From positions 37,798 to 101,797 of the forward strand of contig JANMHJ010000040.1 in assembly GCA_031375105.1 (NCBI GenBank): DNA of 64,000 bases. Reading direction: 5' to 3'. Origin of the DNA: Variovorax sp. Its GTDB lineage: Bacteria; Pseudomonadota; Gammaproteobacteria; Burkholderiales; Burkholderiaceae_C. Position 1 is the stretch's first letter; each line of letters starts with the position of its first letter. The position numbers and the translations under genes were made by a program. Below the pieces are notes generated by a model that saw only the letters and a program-made list of their open reading frames with translations, made no database searches and had not been told where the DNA came from. Positions 3,159-62,933 of the stretch are shown here, piece by piece.

Positions 3159-4910
3159 ATGCATGATAGCCAGAACACACTATCCGAGACATTGGAGTTT
3201 TCCTTGGAATCCCACAAAAGCGCCGCACACTTTGCGCATTGGCCTGCTCGCCTGCCTCACAGCCTCACACCGCCTGCGGGCTCGCTGTGGAACAACCTGG
3301 CTGTCAACGCACTGCGCTACCCCGATAAAGCAGCGCTGCGTTTCTTTGATAGCTCGGTGAGTTATGCTCAGATGCTACAAAAAGCAGAGCAACTTGCGCA
3401 GGTTCTATGCCGGCTAGAGGCCAAAAAGGGCGAAAGAATCGTGGTCTGCATGCAGAATTGTCCGCAGTTGGTGCTCTCGCACTTTGCGATTCTTCGGCTG
3501 GATGCGGTGGTCGTTCCCGTGAACCCGATGAACAAGGCCGAGGAGCTCAAACACTACATCCTTGACCCCGATACGCGCATCGTGATCACCTCGGCAGATT
3601 TGGCGGCGGAGTGGGCGAGCGCATCCAATGCTTTGCCGCCAGAGCAGCGCTTGAAGCACTTGATCGTCACGCACATGAGTGATGGCTTTGGCGCAGAAGC
3701 AGAGAAAGACATGCCGCCCGCTTGGCGCGATTGGCTGCTCACAAAGCACGCAATGCCTATCATCGAAGGCGCGCAAACCTATACATGGGCTGATGTGATG
3801 TCAGCCCCATCCACGCAAGCTCTGCCGCCCGTGACAGCCACCAGCGAAGATCTCGCCATGCTGTCCTACACCAGCGGCACCACAGGCTTGCCCAAGGGTT
3901 GCATGCACACGCATGGTTCGCTCATGCACAACGCCGTGGCCAGCATTTTGTGGGGCAATGGCACTGCGCAAAACGTCACGCTGGCTGCCGTGCCGATGTT
4001 TCATATCACCGGTATGGTCAGCCTCATGCACGCTTCGCTGTATGCGGGCGCGACGCTGGTGATCATGCCGCGCTGGGATCGTGATTTGGCAGGGCGCTTG
4101 ATTTCGCGCTACAAAGTCACGCACTGGACGAACATTCCTACGATGGTGATTGATCTGCTCGCCTCGCCCAGCTTTGATCAATACGATCTGAGTAGCTTGG
4201 TGTATATCGGCGGCGGCGGCGCGGCCATGCCCCAAGCTGTGGCGCAGCGATTGTTGGAGCAATTTGGCTTGCGCTATGTGGAAGGCTATGGCCTCACTGA
4301 GACGGCCGCACCCAGCCACAGCAACCCCACAGATCGCCCCAAGCAGCAATGCCTAGGCGTGCCCTTCATGAGCTGCGATTCGCGCGTAGTCAATCCTGAA
4401 ACTTTGGAAGAAATGCCTGTGGGCGAGCAAGGTGAGATCGTGATGAACGGGCCGATGAATTTCAAAGGCTATTGGAAAAACGCTGAGGCGACCGCTAAAG
4501 CCTTTTTCGAGCGCGATGGCAAAGTGTTTTTCAGGAGCGGCGATTTGGGAAGAGTCGATGAAGAAGGCTACTTCTTCATCACGGATCGCTTGAAACGTAT
4601 GATCAACGCCAGCGGCTTTAAGGTCTGGCCAGCGGAGGTGGAGTCATTGATGTTCAAACACCCTGCGATTGCCGAAGCCTGCGTGATCGCTACCCGTGAT
4701 GCCTATCGCGGCGAAAGCGTCAAAGCCGTCGTCGTGCTGCGCAGCTCGCATGCAGGGCAGGTGAGCGAGCAAGATATCTTGCAATGGTGCCGAGACAATA
4801 TGGCGATTTACAAAGTGCCGCGTGTGGTGGAATTTGCTCAAGTCTTGCCTAAGAGCGGCAGCGGGAAGGTGATGTGGCGGCTGTTGCAGGAGAAAGAAAA
4901 GACTGCTTAA
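3159..4910 (+). CDS. Long-chain acyl-CoA synthetase / AMP-dependent ligase (FadD-like)
   Basis: AMP-binding motif YTSGTTGLPKGCMHTHGSL and a C-terminal ligase domain. Start placed at MHDSQ (3159), only 23 bp from the divergent TctC start, so the true start may be a few codons downstream. Confidence 0.75.
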   Translation: MHDSQNTLSETLEFSLESHKSAAHFAHWPARLPHSLTPPAGSLWNNLAVNALRYPDKAALRFFDSSVSYAQMLQKAEQLAQVLCRLEAKKGERIVVCMQNCPQLVLSHFAILRLDAVVVPVNPMNKAEELKHYILDPDTRIVITSADLAAEWASASNALPPEQRLKHLIVTHMSDGFGAEAEKDMPPAWRDWLLTKHAMPIIEGAQTYTWADVMSAPSTQALPPVTATSEDLAMLSYTSGTTGLPKGCMHTHGSLMHNAVASILWGNGTAQNVTLAAVPMFHITGMVSLMHASLYAGATLVIMPRWDRDLAGRLISRYKVTHWTNIPTMVIDLLASPSFDQYDLSSLVYIGGGGAAMPQAVAQRLLEQFGLRYVEGYGLTETAAPSHSNPTDRPKQQCLGVPFMSCDSRVVNPETLEEMPVGEQGEIVMNGPMNFKGYWKNAEATAKAFFERDGKVFFRSGDLGRVDEEGYFFITDRLKRMINASGFKVWPAEVESLMFKHPAIAEACVIATRDAYRGESVKAVVVLRSSHAGQVSEQDILQWCRDNMAIYKVPRVVEFAQVLPKSGSGKVMWRLLQEKEKTA

Positions 4911-6860: not shown

Positions 6861-8279
6861 TCAAAAAGGCAATTTAGGTATTCCACCGCCCATACCCGGC
6901 AGGCCTTTCATGCCTCCCATGCCTCCCATGCCTCCGAGTTTTTTCATCATCTTCATCATGCCGCCACCCTTCATTTTTTTCATCATGTCGCGCATTTGAT
7001 CGAATTCGTTGAGCAAGCGGTTGACTTCCTGAATTTGCACACCTGCACCTTGGGCAATGCGGCGCTTGCGGCTGGCTTTGGTTTTGCCATCAAACAAGAG
7101 GCTGGGATTGCGCCGTTCTTTACCACTCATGCTGTTGATGATGCCTTCCTTGCGGATGATGTCTTTCTCCGCGCGGTTCAAATCGGCCTCGGAGGCTTTG
7201 CCAGCGAGTTGGCTGGGGAGTTTGTCCATCAGGCTCGACAAACCGCCCATGTTTTTCATTTGCTGTATTTGCTCTAAAAAATCTTGCAAGGTGAAGCCGT
7301 CGCCGCTTTTGATCTTCTCGGCCATCTTCTGGGCAGCCGCCATGTCGACGTTGGCCGTGACTTGCTCGACCAAGGCGAGGATGTCGCCCATGCCCAGAAT
7401 TCGGCCTGCAAAGCGCTCGGCATCAAAAACTTCCAAACCGTCAATTTTTTCGCTCGTGCCGGCGAATTTGATCGGTACGCCAGTGATCTGTTTCACTGAC
7501 AATGCTGCGCCGCCGCGTGAATCGCCGTCGGTTTTGGTCAGGATGATGCCGGTCAGTGGCAGTGCATCTTTAAAAGCTTTGGCGGTGTTGATAGCGTCTT
7601 GGCCTTGCATGGCATCGACGACGAAGAGTGTCTCGATTGGATTCAAGATGCTGTGGAGCTCTTGAATTTCTTGCATGAGTTGCGCGTCAATCGCCAAGCG
7701 GCCAGCGGTGTCCACCAACAGCACGTCGAAATAATGATTCTTCGCATACAGAAGCGCGGCGCGGGCGATGTCGGCGGGTTTTTGATCAGGAGAGGATGGA
7801 AACCACTCCGCACCCGCCTGTGCCGTCACGGTTTTGAGCTGCTCAATTGCAGCGGGGCGATACACGTCGCCAGACACAGTGAGCACTTTCTTTTTGCGCT
7901 TGGTGATCAGGTGCTTGGCCAGTTTTGCGGTGGTGGTGGTTTTGCCCACACCTTGCAAGCCTGCCATCAGAATCACGGCAGGCGGCTGGGCGGCGAGATT
8001 GATGTCGCTCACGCCTTCGCCAATTGTTGTTACCAGCTCGCGGTTGACGATGCCCACCACCGCCTCGCCCGGCTTGAGCGAGCCCACCACCTCTTGGCCA
8101 AGCGATTTTTCTTTCACCCGTGCAATGAAATCGCGCACCACAGGCAGCGCCACATCGGCCTCCAGCAGCGCCATGCGCACCTCGCGCAGCATGTCGGCCA
8201 CGTTGGATTCGGTGATGCGGGCCTGCCCGCTCATCGTTTTGACGAGTTTTGACAGGCGTTCGGAAAGGGCTGAGGCCAT
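6861..8279 (-). CDS. ffh: Signal recognition particle protein Ffh
   Basis: NG-domain GTPase motifs (GLQGVGKTTT, DTAGR, TKTD) and a Met-rich M-domain with GGMGG repeats at the C-terminus. Confidence 0.95.
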   Translation of the reverse strand: MASALSERLSKLVKTMSGQARITESNVADMLREVRMALLEADVALPVVRDFIARVKEKSLGQEVVGSLKPGEAVVGIVNRELVTTIGEGVSDINLAAQPPAVILMAGLQGVGKTTTTAKLAKHLITKRKKKVLTVSGDVYRPAAIEQLKTVTAQAGAEWFPSSPDQKPADIARAALLYAKNHYFDVLLVDTAGRLAIDAQLMQEIQELHSILNPIETLFVVDAMQGQDAINTAKAFKDALPLTGIILTKTDGDSRGGAALSVKQITGVPIKFAGTSEKIDGLEVFDAERFAGRILGMGDILALVEQVTANVDMAAAQKMAEKIKSGDGFTLQDFLEQIQQMKNMGGLSSLMDKLPSQLAGKASEADLNRAEKDIIRKEGIINSMSGKERRNPSLLFDGKTKASRKRRIAQGAGVQIQEVNRLLNEFDQMRDMMKKMKGGGMMKMMKKLGGMGGMGGMKGLPGMGGGIPKLPF

Positions 8280-8365
8280 GATGGATATTGCTGGTTGGCA
8301 GGCCGCTTGCGCAGCGCTTGCAGAGGTAAACTAGAAGCCATGATTTTATCCAGTAGTTCCTCAAC

Positions 8366-9160
8366 GTGAATTCAGCCGCTTGGTTTTGGGTGCTAGCCGC
8401 CGTGGCCTTGGTGGCGTATGCCCTGCCTGCGCTGATGAAAGCGCCTAAGCCGCAGGCTGTGGCCAGTAGCTTGGCTGTGGCTTGGGGTGCGCACGGCTTG
8501 GTGCTGGGGGTGGCTTTGTTTTCCGGGCGTTTTGGCTTTGGGCCAGCGCTCTCGGTGATGGCCTGGCTGGTGCTCACGGTGTATGCCGTGGAAAGCCGCC
8601 TCTATCCGCAAATGCAAAGCCGCCGGGCTTTGGCAGCGCTGGGCGGCTTGGCTTTGCTGATCGGGCTTGTGTTTCCAGGCGCTTCTCTTGATGCAAAGAC
8701 TTCGATCTGGCTGCCTTTGCATGGTGCGTTTGGCGTGGCAGCGTATGGTTTGCTGGCTGTGGCCACGGTGCATGCTTGGCTGATGCGTCGCGCGGAGGAG
8801 CACATGCGTTCAGCGCAAGGCGCGGCGGATGCCGGCGTGGGCTTGCCCTTGATGACACTGGAGCGCTTGATGCTTGGCTTTGTTTTTGCAGCATTTGTGT
8901 TGCTCACGGGCACGCTGCTTGCGGGGTGGCTGTTTGGCGAGGATTTGTATGGCCCGGGCAAAGCTTGGTCGTGGAATCACAAAACGATTTTTTCTGTACT
9001 GGCTTGGGGCGTGATGGCAGCGCTGCTTGTGGGGCGCTGGCAATGGGGCTGGCGCGGCAAGCGGGCGGCACGCTTTGTTTATGGAAGCGCCTTGCTTTTG
9101 TTGCTGGCTTATGTGGGCTCACGCTTCGTGCTAGAAGTTTTCCTCCAACGCACGGTTTGA
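8366..9160 (+). CDS. Cytochrome c assembly family inner-membrane protein (CcsA/YpjD-like)
   Basis: 8-TM protein with a Trp-rich C-terminal region. The arrangement divergent from ffh is conserved for ypjD-like genes. Confidence 0.75.
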   Translation: MNSAAWFWVLAAVALVAYALPALMKAPKPQAVASSLAVAWGAHGLVLGVALFSGRFGFGPALSVMAWLVLTVYAVESRLYPQMQSRRALAALGGLALLIGLVFPGASLDAKTSIWLPLHGAFGVAAYGLLAVATVHAWLMRRAEEHMRSAQGAADAGVGLPLMTLERLMLGFVFAAFVLLTGTLLAGWLFGEDLYGPGKAWSWNHKTIFSVLAWGVMAALLVGRWQWGWRGKRAARFVYGSALLLLLAYVGSRFVLEVFLQRTV

Positions 9161-9184
9161 TACCTCGTTTTTGAAAGATTCCGT

Positions 9185-9427
9185 TTGAAATACGCTGTTG
9201 TTATTTTGGTTGTGCTGCTGGGCGTATGGTTGTGGCGCAAGAATCGCGCGGATGACCGGCGAGAAGCTGTCAAACCGCCCGCGCGCAAGGATTCGGTGCA
9301 GCCCAGTCAACCGCAGATCATGCTCAGTTGCGCAGTCTGTGGTGTGCATTTCCCAGAGAGCGACGCTATTGTGGGCAAGAAGAATCATTACTGTAGCCTT
9401 GCGCATCGCAAGCAGCGAGAGCCTTGA
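9185..9427 (+). CDS. PP0621-family small protein (TM helix plus C-terminal zinc ribbon)
   Basis: MKYAVVILVVLLGVWLWRKN…CAVCGVHFPESDAIVGKKNHYCSLAHR. Sits immediately upstream of PilS/PilR-like genes, as is typical for this family. Confidence 0.65.
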   Translation: MKYAVVILVVLLGVWLWRKNRADDRREAVKPPARKDSVQPSQPQIMLSCAVCGVHFPESDAIVGKKNHYCSLAHRKQREP

Positions 9428-18784: not shown

Positions 18785-18805
18785 TAGGGTTTGAGCAACT
18801 GAAAA

Positions 18806-18832
18806 CCCGCCATGCAAATGGCGGGTTTTTTT
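18806..18832. terminator. Rho-independent terminator (likely bidirectional) between the H1-like gene and yqaA-like gene
   Basis: CCCGCCAT-GCAA-ATGGCGGG hairpin with TTTTTTT on the + strand and TTTT on the - strand. Confidence 0.7.
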
Positions 18833-56852: not shown

Positions 56853-57620
56853 TCATCGCGTAAAGCCTGTCGCCGCGCGGCCACTGCCCTTGGTCACCAT
56901 TGGGGGCACTTCGATCATGCCCATCTCGTCTAAAAACACGCTGGAGCGCGCCTCTTCTGTGGGCCAAGCCTGATCCCAACGATCTGGTTTTGCTGTACTT
57001 GATTTTTTCTTGGGCACATTGGCTTCGCGCAACTCCAACCGTGTGGCCTGCCATTCCGATTCGGGATGCTGCATCGACATCATTTGAGAATGCTGCTCGG
57101 CGGCTTGCAATTCAGGCATCACCATCGCGCGGATGGTTTTCGTGTCAGGCAAATCGTCACTGGTGATTTGCCAAATAGGAATTTGCGCCATCTCCAGTGC
57201 TTTGAGCTTGCGTTGCGTGCCCTCGGATGCCTGTCGTCCCGGCTTACCCGATTGCAACTGAATCACGCCCAGCACATCCCCCTGCTCAGAGCAGATCAAG
57301 AAATCCACGCAGCGTCGCCCCACGCTGCCAAACCATTGGTTGTAGGAGCGGTTTTGCGTCACGCTCAAGAATCGCGCGAGTGCAATCTGCGGCATCAAAA
57401 GGCATTCTGGCAATGCACGGCGCAGCAACACCAACACGCGCAGCTCGGCAGGTGTGAGTGGGCGCATCGTGCGCGGCTGCCAGTCGTCTAAGCGAAATGG
57501 CCGAACCTTGCCGCTGTGCACCACAGGCGCAGAGCGCTGCCACAAAACCCAAGTGATTGCAGCCAACCCAAGCACCACCAAAGCCGCCAGGGGCCAAACC
57601 CAAGTTGAGAGCATATTCAT
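56853..57620 (-). CDS. DUF2726 (NERD/restriction-endonuclease-like fold) membrane-anchored protein
   Basis: N-terminal TM helix, then …LRVLVLLRRALPECLLMPQIALARFL…WFGSVGRRCVDFLICSEQGDVLGVIQL… matching the DUF2726 pattern. Start set at the ATG at 57618-57620. Confidence 0.6.
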   Translation of the reverse strand: MNMLSTWVWPLAALVVLGLAAITWVLWQRSAPVVHSGKVRPFRLDDWQPRTMRPLTPAELRVLVLLRRALPECLLMPQIALARFLSVTQNRSYNQWFGSVGRRCVDFLICSEQGDVLGVIQLQSGKPGRQASEGTQRKLKALEMAQIPIWQITSDDLPDTKTIRAMVMPELQAAEQHSQMMSMQHPESEWQATRLELREANVPKKKSSTAKPDRWDQAWPTEEARSSVFLDEMGMIEVPPMVTKGSGRAATGFTR

Positions 57621-57749
57621 AACACCCCATATAAGAAAGTTATTGCCAAGATGCCGCGCAGACACAATTGCCAGCTCGGCAGCGTTTGTTGCATTATGTG
57701 GCCGAGAATGCAAGCGCAGGCAAGCACACGTATGGAGTGTGACGGAGTG

Positions 57750-58973
57750 TTAACCCTTCACGCACACTACTTGCTTGAGCGTGTGCACCACGTCGACCAG
57801 ATCGCTTTGCGCCGCCATCACTGCGTCAATGTCCTTGTAGGCAGCAGGTGTCTCGTCAATCACGTCTTTGTCTTTGCGGCATTCCACGCCTTCTGTCGCA
57901 TTGCGGTGATCTGCCAGCGTGAAGCGGCGCTTGGCTTCGCCTCGGCTCATGATGCGCCCCGCGCCGTGTGAACACGATTCAAACGACTCCGGATTGCCTG
58001 TGCCGCGCACGATGTAGCTGCGCGCGCCCATGCTGCCGGGGATGATGCCCAACTGGCCTTTTTTTGCGCTCACTGCACCTTTGCGTGTGACGAATACGTC
58101 TTCCCCAAAATGCGTTTCCTTTTGCACATAGTTGTGGTGACAGTTCACCGCTTCGATATGCGATTGAAAACTCTTGTGGATCACAGTTTTCGCAGCATCA
58201 ATCACGCGGCGCATCATTACCTCGCGATTGGTGGCTGCAAACTTCTGCGCCCAGCCCACAGCGCGCACATAGTCGCCAAAATAACGTGCGCCTTCCTCGA
58301 AATAAGCCAGATCACGATCCGGCAGATTCGCGTTGTTGCGCAGCGCATCTTGCTTGGCCAGCTCGATAAACATCGTGCCGATGAAGTTACCCACACCGCG
58401 CGAGCCCGAATGCAGCATGAACCACACAAAGCCCGCTTCGTCTAGGCACACTTCAATGAAGTGATTGCCTGAGCCTAGCGTGCCCAAATGGTTGCGATGA
58501 TTCGTCTTGCCGATCTTCGGATAGTCTTTGCATAGCTCGGTGAATTCAGGCTCAAGTTGAGCCCAAGCCGTGTCCACCGAGCCCGGCACTTTATGCCAAG
58601 CCCCCGGATCACGCGTACCCGGCACTCGCCCATGCGGCACAGCGCGCTCAATCGCCGAGCGCAGCGGCGCCAGGTTGTCTGGCAAATCCTCCGCGCGCAG
58701 CGTCGTCTTCGCCGCCATCATGCCGCAGCCAATGTCAACACCGACAGCGGCGGGAATGATGGCTTTGATCGTCGGAATCACCGAGCCAATCGTCGCGCCA
58801 ATGCCGAAATGCACATCCGGCATCACCGCCACATGCTTAAACACAATTGGCAGCCGAGCCGCATTCGTCAGTTGACGACGCGCCTCATCCTCCACCGGCA
58901 CACCGCGCGTCCACATCTTAATAGGCACACCGCCGGGGGTTTGTTCTTCAATATAGTTAGTTTCCATGTCCAT
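57750..58973 (-). CDS. rtcB: RtcB-family RNA 3'-phosphate ligase
   Basis: RtcB motifs throughout (…MPDVHFGIGATIGSV…, …GSGNHFIE…, …HGAGR…). Start MDMETNY with AAGGAG RBS. Confidence 0.9.
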   Translation of the reverse strand: MDMETNYIEEQTPGGVPIKMWTRGVPVEDEARRQLTNAARLPIVFKHVAVMPDVHFGIGATIGSVIPTIKAIIPAAVGVDIGCGMMAAKTTLRAEDLPDNLAPLRSAIERAVPHGRVPGTRDPGAWHKVPGSVDTAWAQLEPEFTELCKDYPKIGKTNHRNHLGTLGSGNHFIEVCLDEAGFVWFMLHSGSRGVGNFIGTMFIELAKQDALRNNANLPDRDLAYFEEGARYFGDYVRAVGWAQKFAATNREVMMRRVIDAAKTVIHKSFQSHIEAVNCHHNYVQKETHFGEDVFVTRKGAVSAKKGQLGIIPGSMGARSYIVRGTGNPESFESCSHGAGRIMSRGEAKRRFTLADHRNATEGVECRKDKDVIDETPAAYKDIDAVMAAQSDLVDVVHTLKQVVCVKG

Positions 58974-59034
58974 GATTTTCTCCTTGAAACTTGGGGTGTG
59001 CTTTGCAGCACGCCCCAAGCCCTAATGATTGTGC

Positions 59035-60178
59035 TTAACGAAGCTTTACCAGCCCATTCAGCACCTGATCCAAACCTCCGAACACGGAGATCTTGTCGAT
59101 ACGCTCAGCCACGCGCTCCAGTGTCTCCAGCTCTTTCAGGCGCAGTGCGATGGGGTTGTCCTCCATCACCTTGGCCGTGTTGAGCAGAGAGCGAGTAGCA
59201 GCTGTTTCTTCGCGGCGGCGGATCACGTTGGCTTCAGCGGATTTACTCGCTTCCACCACCTGAGCGAAGATGGTTTTCATCTCGCCAGGCAGCACGATAT
59301 CTTTCACGCCCACGCTTTGGAGCTGTAGGCCTTGCGCGGAAAGCTTAGCGCGAACATGCCCGAGAACGACCTCGTCGATGACGGTTTTGTTCTCCAGCAG
59401 CTCGTCGAGCGTGCGCGTGCCAACGGCAGCGCGCAGGCCGAGCTGCAGCTCGCGATACAGATGCTCTGCTGGCTTGGCCAGTTGGGCAAATGCCTCACGC
59501 ACATCGGTGTAGCGCCACGTTGCAGACAGGTTCAGACGCAGGCCGACTTTATCGCGCGTCAGAATATCTTGCCCTGAAACTTCCAACGTTTGCAGACGCA
59601 AATCCACCAGCTCCACGGCCACTTGGCGGCCAAACTTCCAGAAAGCGTAAGCACCGGGTACGAGCAGCTTGTCAATCTTGCTGTCCACCGTGAGCACGCC
59701 CACGTTGTGTTCAGGCACTTGGCTCATGAGCAGGCCGGTGAGCCCCTGCACCGCGCGTTGGCGCAGTTGGGTTTGCGTCAGGCGCTGCGCGAGAGCAGCA
59801 GTGAGTTCAAAAGTCTCAACGATCTCCAGCACCTCGATGCGGACATCCACCAAGCCTTTCCAATACAGGCGGCGAGTAGCAGGCGCGAGGATTTCGACGA
59901 GGACGCCGTTTTCCACGCGCAGACCCACTTGCGTCTCCGTCAGTTCGACGCGCACGAACTCTTCAGCTACCACTTCAGGCTCTTTGGCCATGAGGTAGTC
60001 TGCCAAGCTGTGCGCGAAGGCGGTTTGGTCGATAGCAAAAGTATCGATGCGCAGCTTGTCAAAGCCCTCAAACAGCCAGTAGCGGCCAGGCTTCATGATG
60101 CGCTCGAAATCGCCATTGCGTAGCAAGATGCCGCGCTCGTTTTTCTTGATGGTCACACGTTTGAACATGTTGTTCTCC
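59035..60178 (-). CDS. SPFH/band-7 domain protein (cytoplasmic, no TM)
   Basis: MFKRVTIKKNERGILLRNGDFERIMKPGRYWLFEGFDKLRIDTF is SPFH-like, followed by a long coiled-coil C-terminus. AAGGAGA RBS 7 nt upstream of ATG 60178; 13-nt gap to rtcB. Confidence 0.7.
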
Positions 60179-60474
60179 TTATGAAATGTGTAAGAGTGAA
60201 TAAAGGTGCCGTTACAGGAGCTGCAGTGGATGATGAATGCCTGCCTGAAGGTGATGCCGTGCGCTTTAAGCGTTTGCGAAGTGCAATCAAGACATTCGCG
60301 CTGGCTCAAGCTGGCGGCTCACGCCCAGGCCGCGTGCCCATCACACGGGCCGCAGTCGCTGACAGCGTTTGATTGGGCTCTTTGAATCAGCAAGCTGATT
60401 CGTTGAACTGCATCTCGCGCTGCGTTCGGCGGGTGGTCTTGCGACCGTTTGGTTAGCTTGGCTTTTCAGACCAA

Positions 60475-60548
60475 AGTTTGGAACAGGAGTCGAACCTGCG
60501 ACAGACGATTTATCAGATCGTTGCTCTTACCAACTGAGCTATCCAGTG
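60475..60548 (-). pseudogene. Degenerate tRNA-Ile(GAT)-like gene (acceptor stem disrupted; no CCA)
   Basis: Canonical D-arm (TAGCTCAGTTGGTAAGAGC), anticodon arm (ACGAT-CTGATAA-ATCGT) and T-arm (GCAGG-TTCGACT-CCTGT). Only 4 of 7 acceptor pairs form (5' CACTGGA vs 3' TCCAAAC). The 5' end overlaps the CCA of the upstream minihelix by 2 nt. Confidence 0.4.
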
Positions 60549-60600
60549 GTGGTCATGGCGGGACTCGAACCCGCGCCTTACGGCACACCATGTCATGACC
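60547..60600 (-). other. tRNA-like minihelix (acceptor stem, T-arm and GNRA hairpin; no D or anticodon arm), CCA encoded
   Basis: GGTCATG-ACATGGTGT-GCC GTAA GGC-GCGGG TTCGAGT CCCGC-CATGACC-A-CCA. Perfect 7-bp acceptor stem, canonical T-arm, and a GTAA tetraloop hairpin in place of the anticodon arm. Confidence 0.3.
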
Positions 60601-60730
60601 CTATCTGAGCTTGAAACTGTGCGGCATACGTAGCACCGATCTTTCAAAAGAGATGCTGCGCACCGGCGGAGCGCGCTTTCGCGCCAACCCCTGACCTGTT
60701 AGCGTTCAGTTCTTCACAACAGATTCTTGT

Positions 60731-60759
60731 GCGGTTGAACTAGTGCTTAGTTCAACCGC
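60731..60759. terminator. Perfect 12-bp-stem hairpin at the 3' end of the array-embedded HNH gene (terminator or processing site)
   Basis: GCGGTTGAACTA-gtgct-TAGTTCAACCGC. The HNH stop codon lies in the loop. Followed on the + strand by GATCCTTTT. Confidence 0.4.
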
Positions 60760-61319
60760 GATCCTTTTGGCAGGCGAGCTGCCAGCCATTCATGCACGTC
60801 GGCGCGAATGTGTCGACCTGCGAGTAGGAAGTCTTCGAAGCGGTTGGGCACATAGGGTGCGTAGAGCAGCGGCATACCGGCTTCTTCCGGTGTGCGCGCT
60901 GCTTTGCGTCCGTTGCATGCGCCGCAAGCTGTGACCAGATTCATCCAGCTCCATGCGCCGCCGCGTGATGCGGGCAGGATGTGCTCGCACTGCAGATCAC
61001 GCTCATGAAACTGGTCGCCGCAGTAAGCGCAGGTGAATCGGTCACGCCGAAACAGCTTGTGTTTACTGAAGCCGGGTACGATGTCAAACAAATTGACCCG
61101 TGCCGAGCCATGTAGCGCGATGATGGGATAGACCTCCAGTACCGAGGGCTTGCCGCGCGGCACATTGAAGCCGCCACGCAGCACAGCAAGCGGGCTCGCG
61201 CCCTCGCACCAAGCCACAGAATCTGCAGCCACATGCGTTGCCGCTTGTTCAAGAGAAATCCAAGCCTGCGGCGTGCCTTGAATATCGAGTTGCAGCACAT
61301 GGCTGCGATGGGTTTGCAT
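60747..61319 (-). CDS. HNH endonuclease embedded in the tRNA array
   Basis: CAYCGDQFHERDLQCEHILPASRGGAWSWMNLVTACGACNGRK HNH motif. AAGGAG RBS. Located between the tRNA-His gene and the minihelix. Confidence 0.75.
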   Translation of the reverse strand: MQTHRSHVLQLDIQGTPQAWISLEQAATHVAADSVAWCEGASPLAVLRGGFNVPRGKPSVLEVYPIIALHGSARVNLFDIVPGFSKHKLFRRDRFTCAYCGDQFHERDLQCEHILPASRGGAWSWMNLVTACGACNGRKAARTPEEAGMPLLYAPYVPNRFEDFLLAGRHIRADVHEWLAARLPKGSRLN

Positions 61320-61351: not shown

Positions 61352-61426
61352 TGGGTTGTTCAACCAGATTCGAACTGGTGTCTTCAGGGTCACATCCTGA
61401 AATGCTGCCGCTGCACCATGAACAAC
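61352..61426 (-). tRNA. tRNA-His (GTG), with G-1 and encoded CCA; non-host-like sequence
   Basis: G(-1)-TTGTTCA-TG-GTGC…; anticodon arm TCAGG-ATGTGAC-CCTGA; T-arm ACCAG-TTCGAAT-CTGGT; acceptor TGAACAA; C73; CCA. G-1:C73 is diagnostic for His. Confidence 0.65.
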
Positions 61427-61431
61427 ATATT

Positions 61432-61509
61432 TGGTATCTCGTGAAGGATTCGAACCCTCAACCCCCGACTTCGTAAGACGGTGCTCTGATTCCGTTGAGC
61501 TAACGAGAT
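61432..61509 (-). tRNA. tRNA-Arg (ACG), CCA encoded; A1-U72, AT-rich acceptor
   Basis: ATCTCGT-TA-GCTC…GAGC-A-CCGTC-TTACGAA-GTCGG-GGGTT-GAGGG-TTCGAAT-CCTTC-ACGAGAT-A-CCA. One T·T mismatch in the anticodon stem. Confidence 0.7.
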
Positions 61510-61518
61510 AAAAACTGA

Positions 61519-61591
61519 CGCCCCGAGAAAGTCTCGAACTTCCAACCTGCGGATTTCGAGGCCGCTGCTCTGCCAATTGAGCAATCGGGAC
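61519..61591 (-). tRNA. Class-I (short variable loop) tRNA with CGA (Ser-type) anticodon; no encoded CCA; identity uncertain
   Basis: GTCCCGA-TT-GCTC-AATTGGCA-GAGC-A-GCGGC-CTCGAAA-TCCGC-AGGTT-GGAAG-TTCGAGA-CTTTC-TCGGGGC-G. Full cloverleaf but a 5-nt variable loop, which is incompatible with canonical tRNA-Ser. Confidence 0.45.
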
Positions 61592-61595
61592 ATAT

Positions 61596-61671
61596 TGGCG
61601 TCTCTTATCGGAGTCGAACCGATGGCTTTCTCCTAGACAGGGAGACACTCTGGCCACTGAGTTAACGAGAC
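61596..61671 (-). tRNA. tRNA-Asp (GTC), CCA encoded; pyrimidine at position 37
   Basis: GTCTCGT-TA-ACTC-AGTGGCCA-GAGT-G-TCTCC-CTGTCTA-GGAGA-AAGCC-ATCGG-TTCGACT-CCGAT-AAGAGAC-G-CCA. One G·A acceptor mismatch. Confidence 0.6.
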
Positions 61672-61677
61672 GAAAAT

Positions 61678-61752
61678 TGGCAAACCGCAGGGGTATCGAT
61701 CCCCTCTCTACAGATTGAAAGTCTGCTGGCCACACCTGCTGCCTCGCGGTTC
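61678..61752 (-). tRNA. tRNA-Glu (TTC)-like, CCA encoded; unusual A54 T-loop (ATCGATA)
   Basis: GAACCGC…GCAGA-CTTTCAA-TCTGT-AGAG-AGGGG-ATCGATA-CCCCT-GCGGTTT-G-CCA. The acceptor pairs include a G1·U72 wobble. Confidence 0.5.
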
Positions 61753-61757
61753 ATAAA

Positions 61758-61835
61758 TGGTCTGGGTGGCTGGCTTCGATCCAGCGGCCTCCTGCTTCCA
61801 AAGCAGGCCGTCTACCTGACTGACATTACACCCAG
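61758..61835 (-). tRNA. tRNA-Pro (TGG)-like, CCA encoded; C1-G72, extra nucleotide at 8-9, A54 T-loop
   Basis: CTGGGTG-TAA-TGTC-AGTCAGGTA-GACG-G-CCTGC-TTTGGAA-GCAGG-AGGCC-GCTGG-ATCGAAG-CCAGC-CACCCAG-A-CCA. Confidence 0.5.
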
Positions 61836-61841
61836 AAAAAT

Positions 61842-61918
61842 TGGTGCCCCAGGGGAGATTCGAACTCCCAGAATCCTGTGTCTGAGACAGGCATGTATGC
61901 CGGTTCCATCACCGGGGC
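61842..61918 (-). tRNA. Class-I (short variable loop) tRNA with CAG (Leu-type) anticodon, A73, CCA encoded; identity uncertain
   Basis: GCCCCGG-TG-ATGG…ACAT-G-CCTGT-CTCAGAC-ACAGG-ATTCT-GGGAG-TTCGAAT-CTCCC-CTGGGGC-A-CCA. First gene of the array (promoter-proximal). Confidence 0.45.
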
Positions 61919-61936
61919 GTGAAGTGTTGTGATTTC

Positions 61937-62076
61937 ACTTCGGCTGTGTCCACACGCGAAGACCCGCACATGCGGATCAAACTGTTCGCTGCACAGGCAA
62001 GAGCGACTTGCATGCACATGCGCTGCATCGCAGTTTGCGAGAATTCGAGCAGCGTGGTGTGTGGGCACACCCGAAG
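61937..62076. ncRNA. Structured leader or putative ncRNA upstream of the tRNA array: about 22-bp inverted repeat arms flanking about 100 nt rich in internal palindromes
   Basis: CACTTCGGCTGTGTCCACAC (61937-61956) matches the reverse complement of GTGTGTGGGCACACCCGAAGTG (62055-62076). The interior holds GCGAAGACCCGCACATGCGG…, TGCATGCA and related palindromes. Confidence 0.3.
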
Positions 62077-62195
62077 TGAAACGGCGTTTGATCTAACGAT
62101 CAAAACAGCCGAACTTCTTTTCAACAAATTGTTAAAGAACAGTGACGCATTTGCACAATGCAAAGCTGCGCCCTCATGGCACGATGACCACGATG

Positions 62196-62239
62196 AAAAA
62201 AGACAACAAAAAAGCCCGATCTCGTTTCCAAGACCGGGC
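62196..62239 (-). terminator. Orphan Rho-independent terminator on the minus strand, upstream of the tRNA-array promoter region
   Basis: Minus strand reads GCCCGGTCTTGGAAACGAGATCGGGC followed by TTTTTTGTTGTCTTTTTT. No convincing minus-strand ORF lies upstream of it. Confidence 0.5.
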
Positions 62240-62537
62240 CTACAGAGGTAGGTGAAGACGGTACGTGAGTTACACGTGACCCTCGCCCGGTGGGGCTGAA
62301 TAATCCAATGCCTTCGGCTCAAAGCCTAGGCGCGAGCTATGCATGACATTCAGCCGCGCACAGCCACACCAAGCCTGAGCGGCTAAGCGTGTGGGGGATG
62401 CGATACGGTTAAACATATGAAGCTCTTGAAAAAATTAAAATGCAGAAAACTGCGATAGAACGTAATGTAAAGACTCTTTACTGGATCGTCAACATCTGCG
62501 ACAATTATTTTTTGATTTCGTTGCGAATTTTCAACAC

Positions 62538-62933
62538 ATGCAAGACTTTTCCGTCAACGCCACAGTTGTGCGCCGCACCAATCTCAATATGCTTTTGCAT
62601 GAGTTTGTGAAAACCCGCATCGCGCAAGGTGCAGCGCCCAAAGGCTTGGAGCAGGAGTTTGCGCAGCAAATACAAATCTCCCCCAGTATGCTCAGCCAAA
62701 TCAAAAGCTCACGCCCGATTGGTGACAAGCTCGCGCGGCAAATTGAGGTGCTCTGCGGCTTGGCGGCACATTGGCTGGATGAGACGCAAGCTGTGGCAGA
62801 AGATTTGCCCAATGAGGCGGAAGATCACATCGCGGATTTGGCGCGCCAAGCTTGGCGGCAATGCAATGCCGAACAGAAACGCGAGCTGCGCTTGCATTTG
62901 CGTGCCTTGGCGCAGCCAGAAAAGAAAGCCTAA
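62538..62933 (+). CDS. XRE/Cro-type helix-turn-helix DNA-binding protein
   Basis: …EFAQQIQISPSMLSQIKSSRPIGDKLARQIEVLCGLAAHWLDE… is an HTH_XRE-like motif. Preceded by an AT-rich promoter region. Confidence 0.55.
   Translation: MQDFSVNATVVRRTNLNMLLHEFVKTRIAQGAAPKGLEQEFAQQIQISPSMLSQIKSSRPIGDKLARQIEVLCGLAAHWLDETQAVAEDLPNEAEDHIADLARQAWRQCNAEQKRELRLHLRALAQPEKKA

Follow-up and report, generated by a model that had tools for sequence, protein, structure and literature searches.

An HNH nuclease gene at the 3' end of a tRNA array, upstream of a Band-7/RtcB module, in Variovorax sp.

Arrays of tRNA genes are widespread on plasmids, phages and chromosomes, and have been proposed to serve as tRNA back-ups or decoys when translation is under stress or when toxins attack tRNAs. 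The nuclease genes they carry have so far been named 'homing endonuclease' without any test. The example considered here is an HNH nuclease gene that adjoins a tRNA array in a stretch of 64,000 nucleotides (nt) of Variovorax sp. DNA (assembly GCA_031375105.1, contig JANMHJ010000040.1, positions 37,798 to 101,797; this whole stretch is called the window). The association of HNH genes with tRNA arrays is already published, and the window holds an unusually complete example. One known relative is All8564 of Anabaena sp. PCC 7120, encoded on pCC7120delta beside the trn operon with its 24 tRNAs. Santamaría-Gómez et al. found HNH genes of the All8564 type conserved beside L-arrays, and all8564, transcribed from a stress-regulated promoter of its own, induced by translational stress along with the trn operon and rtcB; they speculated on a SegB-like role, SegB being cited there as promoting the inheritance of its tRNA cluster (PMC8421152). 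Members of the TrcR regulon are the trn operon, all8564, rtcB, a slipin gene and a second HNH gene (PMC10272220). Morgado & Vicente (2018) reported an XRE regulator and an HNH gene in ~87% of Mycobacterium G2 arrays (PMC5966550). Finally, a tRNA associated with band-7 (the 'b7a-tRNA') was predicted beside Band-7/RtcB genes by Burroughs & Aravind (2016), as related in bioRxiv 10.1101/312249.

All8564 is close in size to the HNH protein of the window (178 vs 190 amino acids, aa) and appears to share its architecture, and its gene, which is on a plasmid, likewise neighbours a long tRNA array in the same orientation. BLASTP aligns the two over residues 81–158 only (45% identity), and hhalign gives 99.3% probability over 145 columns (5–160) spanning both domains, the N-terminal part with low confidence; the N-terminal domains are highly diverged. 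Across cyanobacteria the All8564 family is 74–94% conserved. The Anabaena gene lies upstream of its array with its own promoter, whereas the window gene lies downstream, its start codon 32 nt past the end of the last tRNA (tRNA-His, same strand), and the regulator is the ribbon-helix-helix protein TrcR in Anabaena but an XRE-like helix-turn-helix (HTH) protein in the window. The TrcR regulon partners rtcB and slipin, located elsewhere in the Anabaena genome, are physical neighbours of the HNH gene in the window. The Mycobacterium units also combine an XRE regulator, a tRNA array and an HNH gene, and likewise occur on plasmids and phages, and plasmid arrays of Mycolicibacterium/Mycobacterium contain HNH homologues of 36–43% identity. 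They differ in belonging to another phylum and in having the HNH gene mid-array, and the one Mycobacterium-type locus examined (L177; loci are designated by L numbers) has no annotated Band-7 or RtcB gene. The downstream half of the locus, with its tRNA-like RNA, Band-7 protein and RtcB encoded together, matches the Band-7/b7a-tRNA/RtcB system as outlined in the preprint, except that the window has an XRE-array-HNH cassette in place of RtcR and a sigma-54 promoter. Array-less relatives of the locus share RtcR and a sigma-54-type promoter with the RtcR-sigma54 rtcBA operon.

The explanation favoured here, with moderate confidence, is that the open reading frame (ORF) encodes a tRNA-array-associated HNH nuclease and is a core gene of a portable XRE-array-HNH cassette, upstream of an RNA-repair module and co-expressed with the array. 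The gene is real and intact, and a preliminary description of the window correctly took its product for an HNH nuclease: Pfam HNH_5 (1.2e-15, 57.6 bits, cut-off 27.5) and HNH (9e-12, 45.4 bits, cut-off 21.4) both match residues 97–151 above their gathering thresholds. A GGAG Shine-Dalgarno sequence (61329–61326) stands six nt ahead of the ATG, the identical protein occurs with the same gene order on three public contigs, and no G+C anomaly is seen at the locus within the window. The protein consists of an N-terminal domain (~1–85), a Cas9/IscB-type HNH domain (86–158) and a conserved C-terminal tail. Its CxxC...EH...N...CxxCN motif is intact in each of 22 aligned homologues, with the catalytic and zinc-binding residues (C97, C100, E112, H113, N127, C132, C135 and N136) invariant, and most of these stay invariant once cyanobacterial members join the alignment. 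The features of a beta-beta-alpha-metal fold are present, and NCBIfam matches are at the level of IscB and Cas9 HNH domains. Fold and profile comparisons show a catalytic domain resembling the HNH domains of Cas9, IscB, Gme, McrA and Cap5, the best matches being those of Cas9/IscB and the Geobacter Gme HNH nicking endonuclease (PDB 4H9D). Unlike these, it is a stand-alone protein with no RuvC, no guide RNA and a different N-terminal domain. The AlphaFold2 (AF2) model has a mean predicted local distance difference test score (pLDDT) of 75, with the beta-rich N-terminal domain at 80–90. The protein is probably an active nuclease of the Cas9/IscB/Gme beta-beta-alpha-metal type, DNA is its most likely substrate, and the N-terminal domain, which is unlike solved structures in two PDB fold searches, presumably supplies specificity. 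The gene had also been said to mirror T4 segB, which is likewise a nuclease gene within a cluster of tRNA genes. SegB, however, belongs to the GIY-YIG enzymes; in profile searches the window protein matches only HNH families and has no GIY-YIG domain, so that the two are analogous rather than related.

The position of the gene is highly constant. A word-indexed search returned >1,150 homologues, the best 120 of which are full length and 75–94% identical, and an exhaustive search of fifty-percent clusters gave 101 with E <= 1e-30 and 2,548 with E <= 1e-10, of which many are full length and 36–55% identical. Throughout 80 genome loci (one genome per species, nearly all titled Burkholderiales) the HNH gene is in the same local position, and in ~50 of the 53 loci scanned for tRNAs a co-oriented array ends <100 nt before the HNH start. 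The window gene was previously thought to lie inside its array; it does adjoin the seven-tRNA array, but at the 3' end rather than embedded within it, and the elements further downstream belong to a separate RNA. In relatives the number of tRNAs at this place ranges from 0 to 23 and their order is partly shared, and HNH is retained where the array has shrunk to 0–2 tRNAs. While the tRNA content varies, what stays most constant in the cassette is the HNH gene, and it moves with the XRE regulator: orf131 is found upstream of the array at 45–84% identity in most loci, including three megaplasmids. Gene orders, taken from tblastn with the window proteins and from gene calls on the encoding contigs, recurrently run from a divergent orf131 through the tRNA array, HNH, SPFH and sometimes a ClpP/SDH-like protease to RtcB. 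RtcB is downstream of HNH in most loci, and SPFH is syntenic in about half. In one variant HNH is followed by a classic terminator, with RtcB ~4 kb off; in another, seen in several loci, HNH abuts RtcB with a 112-nt gap, and one of these has no array; and on the megaplasmids of Methylibium, Variovorax and Polaromonas orf131, array and HNH occur with neither SPFH nor RtcB.

Constraint on the HNH gene equals that on RtcB, the median pairwise ratio of nonsynonymous to synonymous substitution rates (dN/dS) being 0.20 and 0.21, respectively, in the same loci. By part of the protein, the ratio is 0.26 for the N-terminal domain, 0.19 for the HNH domain and 0.10 for the tail. Divergence of the gene also follows its neighbours, the Spearman correlation of pairwise dN being 0.63 for HNH-SPFH and 0.61 for HNH-RtcB, compared with 0.60 for RtcB-SPFH. 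An SPFH-anchored sample of 80 metagenomic loci, not selected for HNH, addresses the linkage to the array. Among those with at least 2.5 kb upstream, 18 have HNH and array, 2 HNH only, 4 an array without upstream HNH, and 13 neither (Fisher p = 5e-5). Thus 18 of 22 arrays carry an upstream HNH gene, which does not favour homing.

HNH is not an integral component of Band-7/RtcB loci, as 13 loci with the same structured RNA (described below) have no HNH gene. These HNH-less, array-less loci carry a TGGCACG-N4-T(C/G)GCA sigma-54-type promoter just upstream of the RNA, and in L136, the one locus checked, an RtcR gene (Pfam RtcR 1e-80 plus Sigma54_activat) lies in divergent orientation. The XRE-array-HNH cassette therefore occupies the place of RtcR/sigma-54 control. 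More distant homologues, 35–44% identical, are found within or at the end of co-oriented arrays on plasmids of Variovorax, Burkholderia sp. M701, Acidiphilium, Mycolicibacterium and Frondihabitans, and in the tRNA array of the Salicola jumbo phage SCTP-2. The phage or mobile origin earlier suggested for the array is borne out to this extent, that relatives of the gene sit in arrays on megaplasmids and on that phage.

Several points weigh against the gene being a cassette core co-expressed with the array. Arrays L121, L155, L156 and L165 are without upstream HNH and a few loci have HNH without an array, making the linkage strong, not absolute. There are no tRNA genes within 4 kb of the homologues in Ralstonia phage RsoM2USA and Gordonia phage Forza, and the N-terminal domain has no Pfam match and no convincing structural match in the two PDB fold searches. 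The strong conservation may be compatible with a DNA-level selfish role of the whole cassette. Co-transcription, processing and the role of the hairpin described below are read from sequence, and an internal HNH promoter is possible; the consensus promoter scan gave no minus-strand promoter-like sites between 60170 and 62460, which is weak evidence. On balance, the HNH protein most likely serves the cassette, whether by maintaining, recombining or spreading the array or by cutting DNA in response to stress. The question then shifts from that of a selfish insert to why the cassette needs a DNA-type nuclease. For that question the Burkholderiales layout, in which a single strand carries every partner of the cyanobacterial TrcR regulon, is a compact genetic system.

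The cassette would consist, in order, of an XRE-type repressor, an operator and promoter, a leader with a terminator, the tRNA array and HNH, placed directly upstream of the Band-7(SPFH)-RtcB module and its tRNA-like RNA, where array-less relatives have RtcR and a sigma-54 promoter. The regulator orf131 has a sub-threshold match to Pfam HTH_3 (E = 0.033) and matches a PHROG 'transcriptional repressor' family (6e-8). The promoter and its overlapping palindrome form a block that is invariant across 7 loci of different genera, and GTAAAGAGTCTTTAC occurs in one copy per locus upstream of the array in 42 loci, consistent with a putative operator for the XRE-like orf131. The strong leader terminator, kept in sequence and position in 7/7 aligned loci, suggests an attenuator or conditional read-through leader of ~250 nt. 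A 48-codon ORF (62416–62270) stops 29 nt before this terminator. Both arms of the long hairpin just before the first tRNA are kept in 6/7 loci. Transcription would start at the sigma-70 promoter (~62464–62492), read through the leader terminator, and cross the seven tRNAs. Processing of the tRNAs would then free an HNH mRNA beginning ~30 nt past tRNA-His, to be translated from its own GGAG. Further on, the transcript would pass the hairpin at the HNH stop codon and continue into the structured RNA, SPFH, RtcB and DUF2726.

The preliminary description gave the ORF its exact coordinates and rightly noted the perfect 12-bp hairpin at its end, but put the stop codon in the loop of the hairpin; the TAA (60749–60747) is within the hairpin, with two of its nucleotides in the 5' arm and only one in the loop. 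A 101-nt fold around it has z = -3.8, and perfect stems of at least 12 bp with loops of 3–8 nt are expected 0.05 times per Markov-shuffled window, while two are observed. The other one is at 18802–18829 with a 4-nt loop. Across 29 loci, 89.6% of cells are paired and 8/11 pairs show compensatory changes, values reached by 0/500 shuffles, and slid controls are 26–42% paired. The 5' arm is coding (…S-R-L-N-stop), and changes in it are compensated in the 3' arm. The hairpin, earlier proposed as a processing site or terminator, is not a canonical intrinsic terminator: on the transcribed minus strand no U-run follows it, the tail reading CACAAGAAUCUG, and a terminator scan flags it for the plus strand only. 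Relatives whose operon stops after HNH use a different, classic terminator, a GC-stem plus T-run. Having no U-tract, the hairpin would not terminate transcription; it looks like a cassette junction or an mRNA 3' stabiliser, probably protecting the HNH mRNA at its 3' end once the transcript has been cut at the tRNA-like elements further on, and a processing or stabilising role is plausible. Array-less loci carry CACGCATCTGGCA and HNH-bearing loci CACGAATCTG. The idea that the 3' arm is a remnant of the sigma-54 promoter was rejected: the spacing to the conserved CGCTCACAGG differs by ~18 nt, and only positional replacement is therefore claimed.

Another possibility, unlikely but deserving mention, is an integrated translational-stress and RNA-repair operon in which HNH is a working partner and not a passenger, acting on tRNA genes, tRNA or ribosome-bound nucleic acid. 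A repressor-controlled, terminator-gated transcript would here deliver spare, partly non-canonical tRNAs, a nuclease, a ~580-nt tRNA-mimic RNA, a Band-7 scaffold and RtcB. If so, the cassette would have displaced RtcR/sigma-54 control and physically united the dispersed Anabaena TrcR regulon.

Quite improbable, given the data above, is the intervening homing-type endonuclease of the preliminary description. An active free-standing enzyme, functionally like T4 SegB or the HNH enzymes of the T5 tRNA region, would cleave alleles that lack the array or HNH, and its gene would be copied into them with flanking tRNAs by recombinational repair, the linkage to arrays reflecting target preference. Such a role has been proposed in the literature (PMC8421152; PMC5966550), and it agrees with the patchy distribution of arrays with HNH on megaplasmids and a jumbo phage, with the few arrays that lack HNH, and with an HNH domain of the DNA-cutting Cas9/IscB type. 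However, SegB-type genes are sporadic among related phages, whereas the window HNH is a fixed, selected core gene: its position is constant in about 80 species-level genomes, its dN/dS equals that of RtcB, its divergence is congruent with that of its neighbours, it persists beside 0–2 tRNAs, and its Anabaena counterpart is under its own stress-regulated promoter (PMC8421152). The clearest array without HNH, L155 with 22 tRNAs, is no empty site. Its gap runs from ~48 nt before the HNH start to ~14 nt before the HNH stop, and because the final HNH codons and the hairpin are kept (3500–3560), it is a deletion allele. Together with the invariant residues, these observations amount to what the preliminary description had said would count against homing, conservation at this position under purifying selection. 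Neither sporadic presence nor decoupled evolution or decay is seen, and a sporadic free-standing homing gene is not supported.

An RNA-directed nuclease of a translational-stress and RNA-repair pathway, either processing the polycistronic tRNA precursor or cleaving or trimming damaged tRNAs together with the tRNA-like RNA, Band-7 and RtcB, is just as doubtful. Its appeal lies in the linkage of HNH to RtcB, Band-7 and tRNA-like RNAs in one strand-consistent cluster, in the co-regulation of HNH, rtcB and slipin in Anabaena (PMC8421152, PMC10272220), and in the loci where HNH abuts RtcB, one of them array-less. Yet HNH tracks the array in its presence rather than the Band-7/RtcB module, which often occurs without HNH, and megaplasmids have HNH and array without RtcB. 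HNH enzymes leave a 5'-phosphate and a 3'-OH, while RtcB needs a 3'-phosphate or 2',3'-cyclic phosphate plus a 5'-OH, so that by established enzymology the ends made by HNH could not be joined by RtcB. Moreover, in structure it is DNA nickases and DNases that come closest.

A defence-type DNase effector (PtuB/Septu-like or restriction-like), induced with spare tRNAs under translational attack, e.g. by phage, to degrade invading DNA, is very unlikely: PADLOC and NCBIfam give domain-level matches to PtuB, retron HNH and Cas9, arrays are discussed in PMC12803027 as counter-measures to tRNA-targeting systems, and expression is stress-inducible in Anabaena (PMC8421152, PMC10272220), but the matches span the generic HNH core only, at 17–34 bits against a 150-bit PtuB cut-off, no PtuA partner ATPase or other known defence gene was recognised among the locus genes checked, and no modification or immunity gene is evident. 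With PADLOC giving HNH-core matches only, a recognisable defence system was rejected.

Beyond the cassette favoured here as the home of the HNH gene lies a conserved structured RNA, which fills the space between HNH and SPFH. The RNAalifold consensus places, in order, the stop-codon hairpin, a multi-stem domain, a mini-tRNA and a tRNA-like element; 67 pairs are predicted for the intergenic RNA, 42 of them with compensatory changes, and it is conserved across genera. Three example pairs of the multi-stem domain show compensatory changes in 11, 10 and 12 sequences, and this domain has no Rfam match at E <= 1; the leader, too, falls in no Rfam family. The mini-tRNA shows acceptor-stem covariation and a conserved NCCA in the locus alignments, and matches Rfam transfer-messenger RNA (tmRNA; tRNA-like domain, TLD, only) at 31.6 bits (gathering 47) and mascRNA at 30.3 bits, both below gathering. 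A YrlA match (30 bits, gathering 69), like that to tmRNA, was set aside as below threshold and reflecting generic tRNA-like arms. The tRNA-like element is labelled 'tRNA-Ile(GAU)' by ARAGORN, and Rfam aligns only model positions 4–67. It was rejected as an array member, since it has a 4-bp acceptor stem and belongs to the separate conserved RNA. In many of the 53 scanned loci such an element stands at a fixed place ~200 nt past the HNH stop. Its anticodon and T stems covary and its anticodon loop is hypervariable, the 'anticodon' in relatives being that of Met, Ile, Phe, Cys, Val, Lys, Glu or Ser. It fits, and probably is, the b7a-tRNA outlined in the preprint, although the window RNA, with its multi-stem domain, CCA-bearing mini-tRNA and 3' extension up to the SPFH Shine-Dalgarno sequence, is much larger than a single tRNA-like gene. 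The locus could also serve for studying this uncharacterised Band-7-associated tRNA-like RNA.

The structured RNA, including the multi-stem domain, occurs in HNH-less Band-7/RtcB loci as well. An nhmmer profile of the RNA matches from position 1 in HNH-bearing loci, but only from position 33–55, past the hairpin, in the 13 HNH-less, array-less loci. A sigma-54-type promoter, TGGCACGCATCT[CG]GCAAT, stands directly before the structured RNA in L095 and L136-L153.

Of the downstream protein genes (Table 1), SPFH has its true start at ATG 60168 with an AAGGAG Shine-Dalgarno sequence, and gene calls on identical contigs agree. The DUF2726 gene also follows RtcB in the closest relatives, L004 and L087, and may belong to the operon as well. 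In many loci a gene between SPFH and RtcB (L090:12255-13283) encodes a protein of 342 aa that faintly matches SDH/ClpP-class serine proteases; it recalls stomatin-NfeD protease pairs, and the window does not have it. In L156 an HNH gene of 48% identity stands downstream of SPFH instead of upstream.

Table 1. Positions of the features of the HNH locus within the 64,000-nt window.
Feature	Position	Strand	Details
orf131, small XRE/Cro-type HTH regulator	62538-62933	plus	divergent from array
Sigma-70-like promoter	62464-62492	minus	TTGACG-17-TACATT; from promoter scan; overlaps palindrome
Palindrome GTAAAGAGTCTTTAC	62467-62481		between -35 and -10 of array promoter; putative operator of orf131
Intrinsic leader terminator	62212-62241	minus	13-bp stem, then TTTTTGTTG; between promoter and first tRNA
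Long hairpin	61933-62081	minus	~150 nt; 23-nt arms, 91% complementary; just before first tRNA
Seven-tRNA array	61352-61918	minus	ARAGORN, and Rfam tRNA 50-55 bits; spacers 3-7 nt
HNH nuclease gene	60747-61319	minus	ATG at 61319; 190 aa; TAA stop 60749-60747
Stop-codon hairpin	60731-60759	minus	two perfect 12-nt arms, 5-nt loop; 5' arm is last HNH codons
Conserved structured RNA	60169-60746	minus	roughly 580 nt, between HNH and SPFH
Multi-stem RNA domain	60607-60719	minus	RNAalifold consensus with many compensatory pairs
Mini-tRNA	60547-60600	minus	54 nt; 7-bp acceptor stem, GNRA hairpin, T arm, discriminator, encoded CCA
tRNA-like element	60476-60547	minus	D, anticodon and T arms; 4-bp acceptor TGGA/TCCA
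3' part of intergenic RNA / SPFH leader	60169-60475	minus	motifs ACGGTCGCAAGACCACCCGCCGAACG and CTGTAACGGCACC; alignment of 39 loci
SPFH/Band-7 (slipin-like) protein	59035-60168	minus	377 aa; Pfam Band_7 8e-30
RtcB RNA ligase	57750-59018	minus	Pfam RtcB 2.6e-127
DUF2726 protein	56853-57713	minus	Pfam DUF2726 3.4e-10; last gene on strand, directly after RtcB

The array in the window runs in the order Leu-CAG, Pro-UGG, Glu-UUC, Asp-GUC, Ser-CGA, Arg-ACG and His-GUG. Two of its members are short, tRNA-Leu(CAG) (61842-61918) at only 77 nt and tRNA-Ser(CGA) (61517-61592) at only 76 nt; both are without the long class II variable arm, while the Leu and Ser genes of relatives are of normal length (85–93 nt). 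These two tRNAs might be unchargeable and could act as decoys. Other genes occur within or near some arrays. In L090-L093 HNH is preceded, at 8152-9300, by a gene for a PcfJ-domain protein of 382 aa, which may also be what fills the gaps of ~1.2 kb at similar array offsets in L009, L026, L031, L041, L044 and L047. Between the tRNAs of the array on the Methylibium megaplasmid there are AlkB and HD-domain genes.

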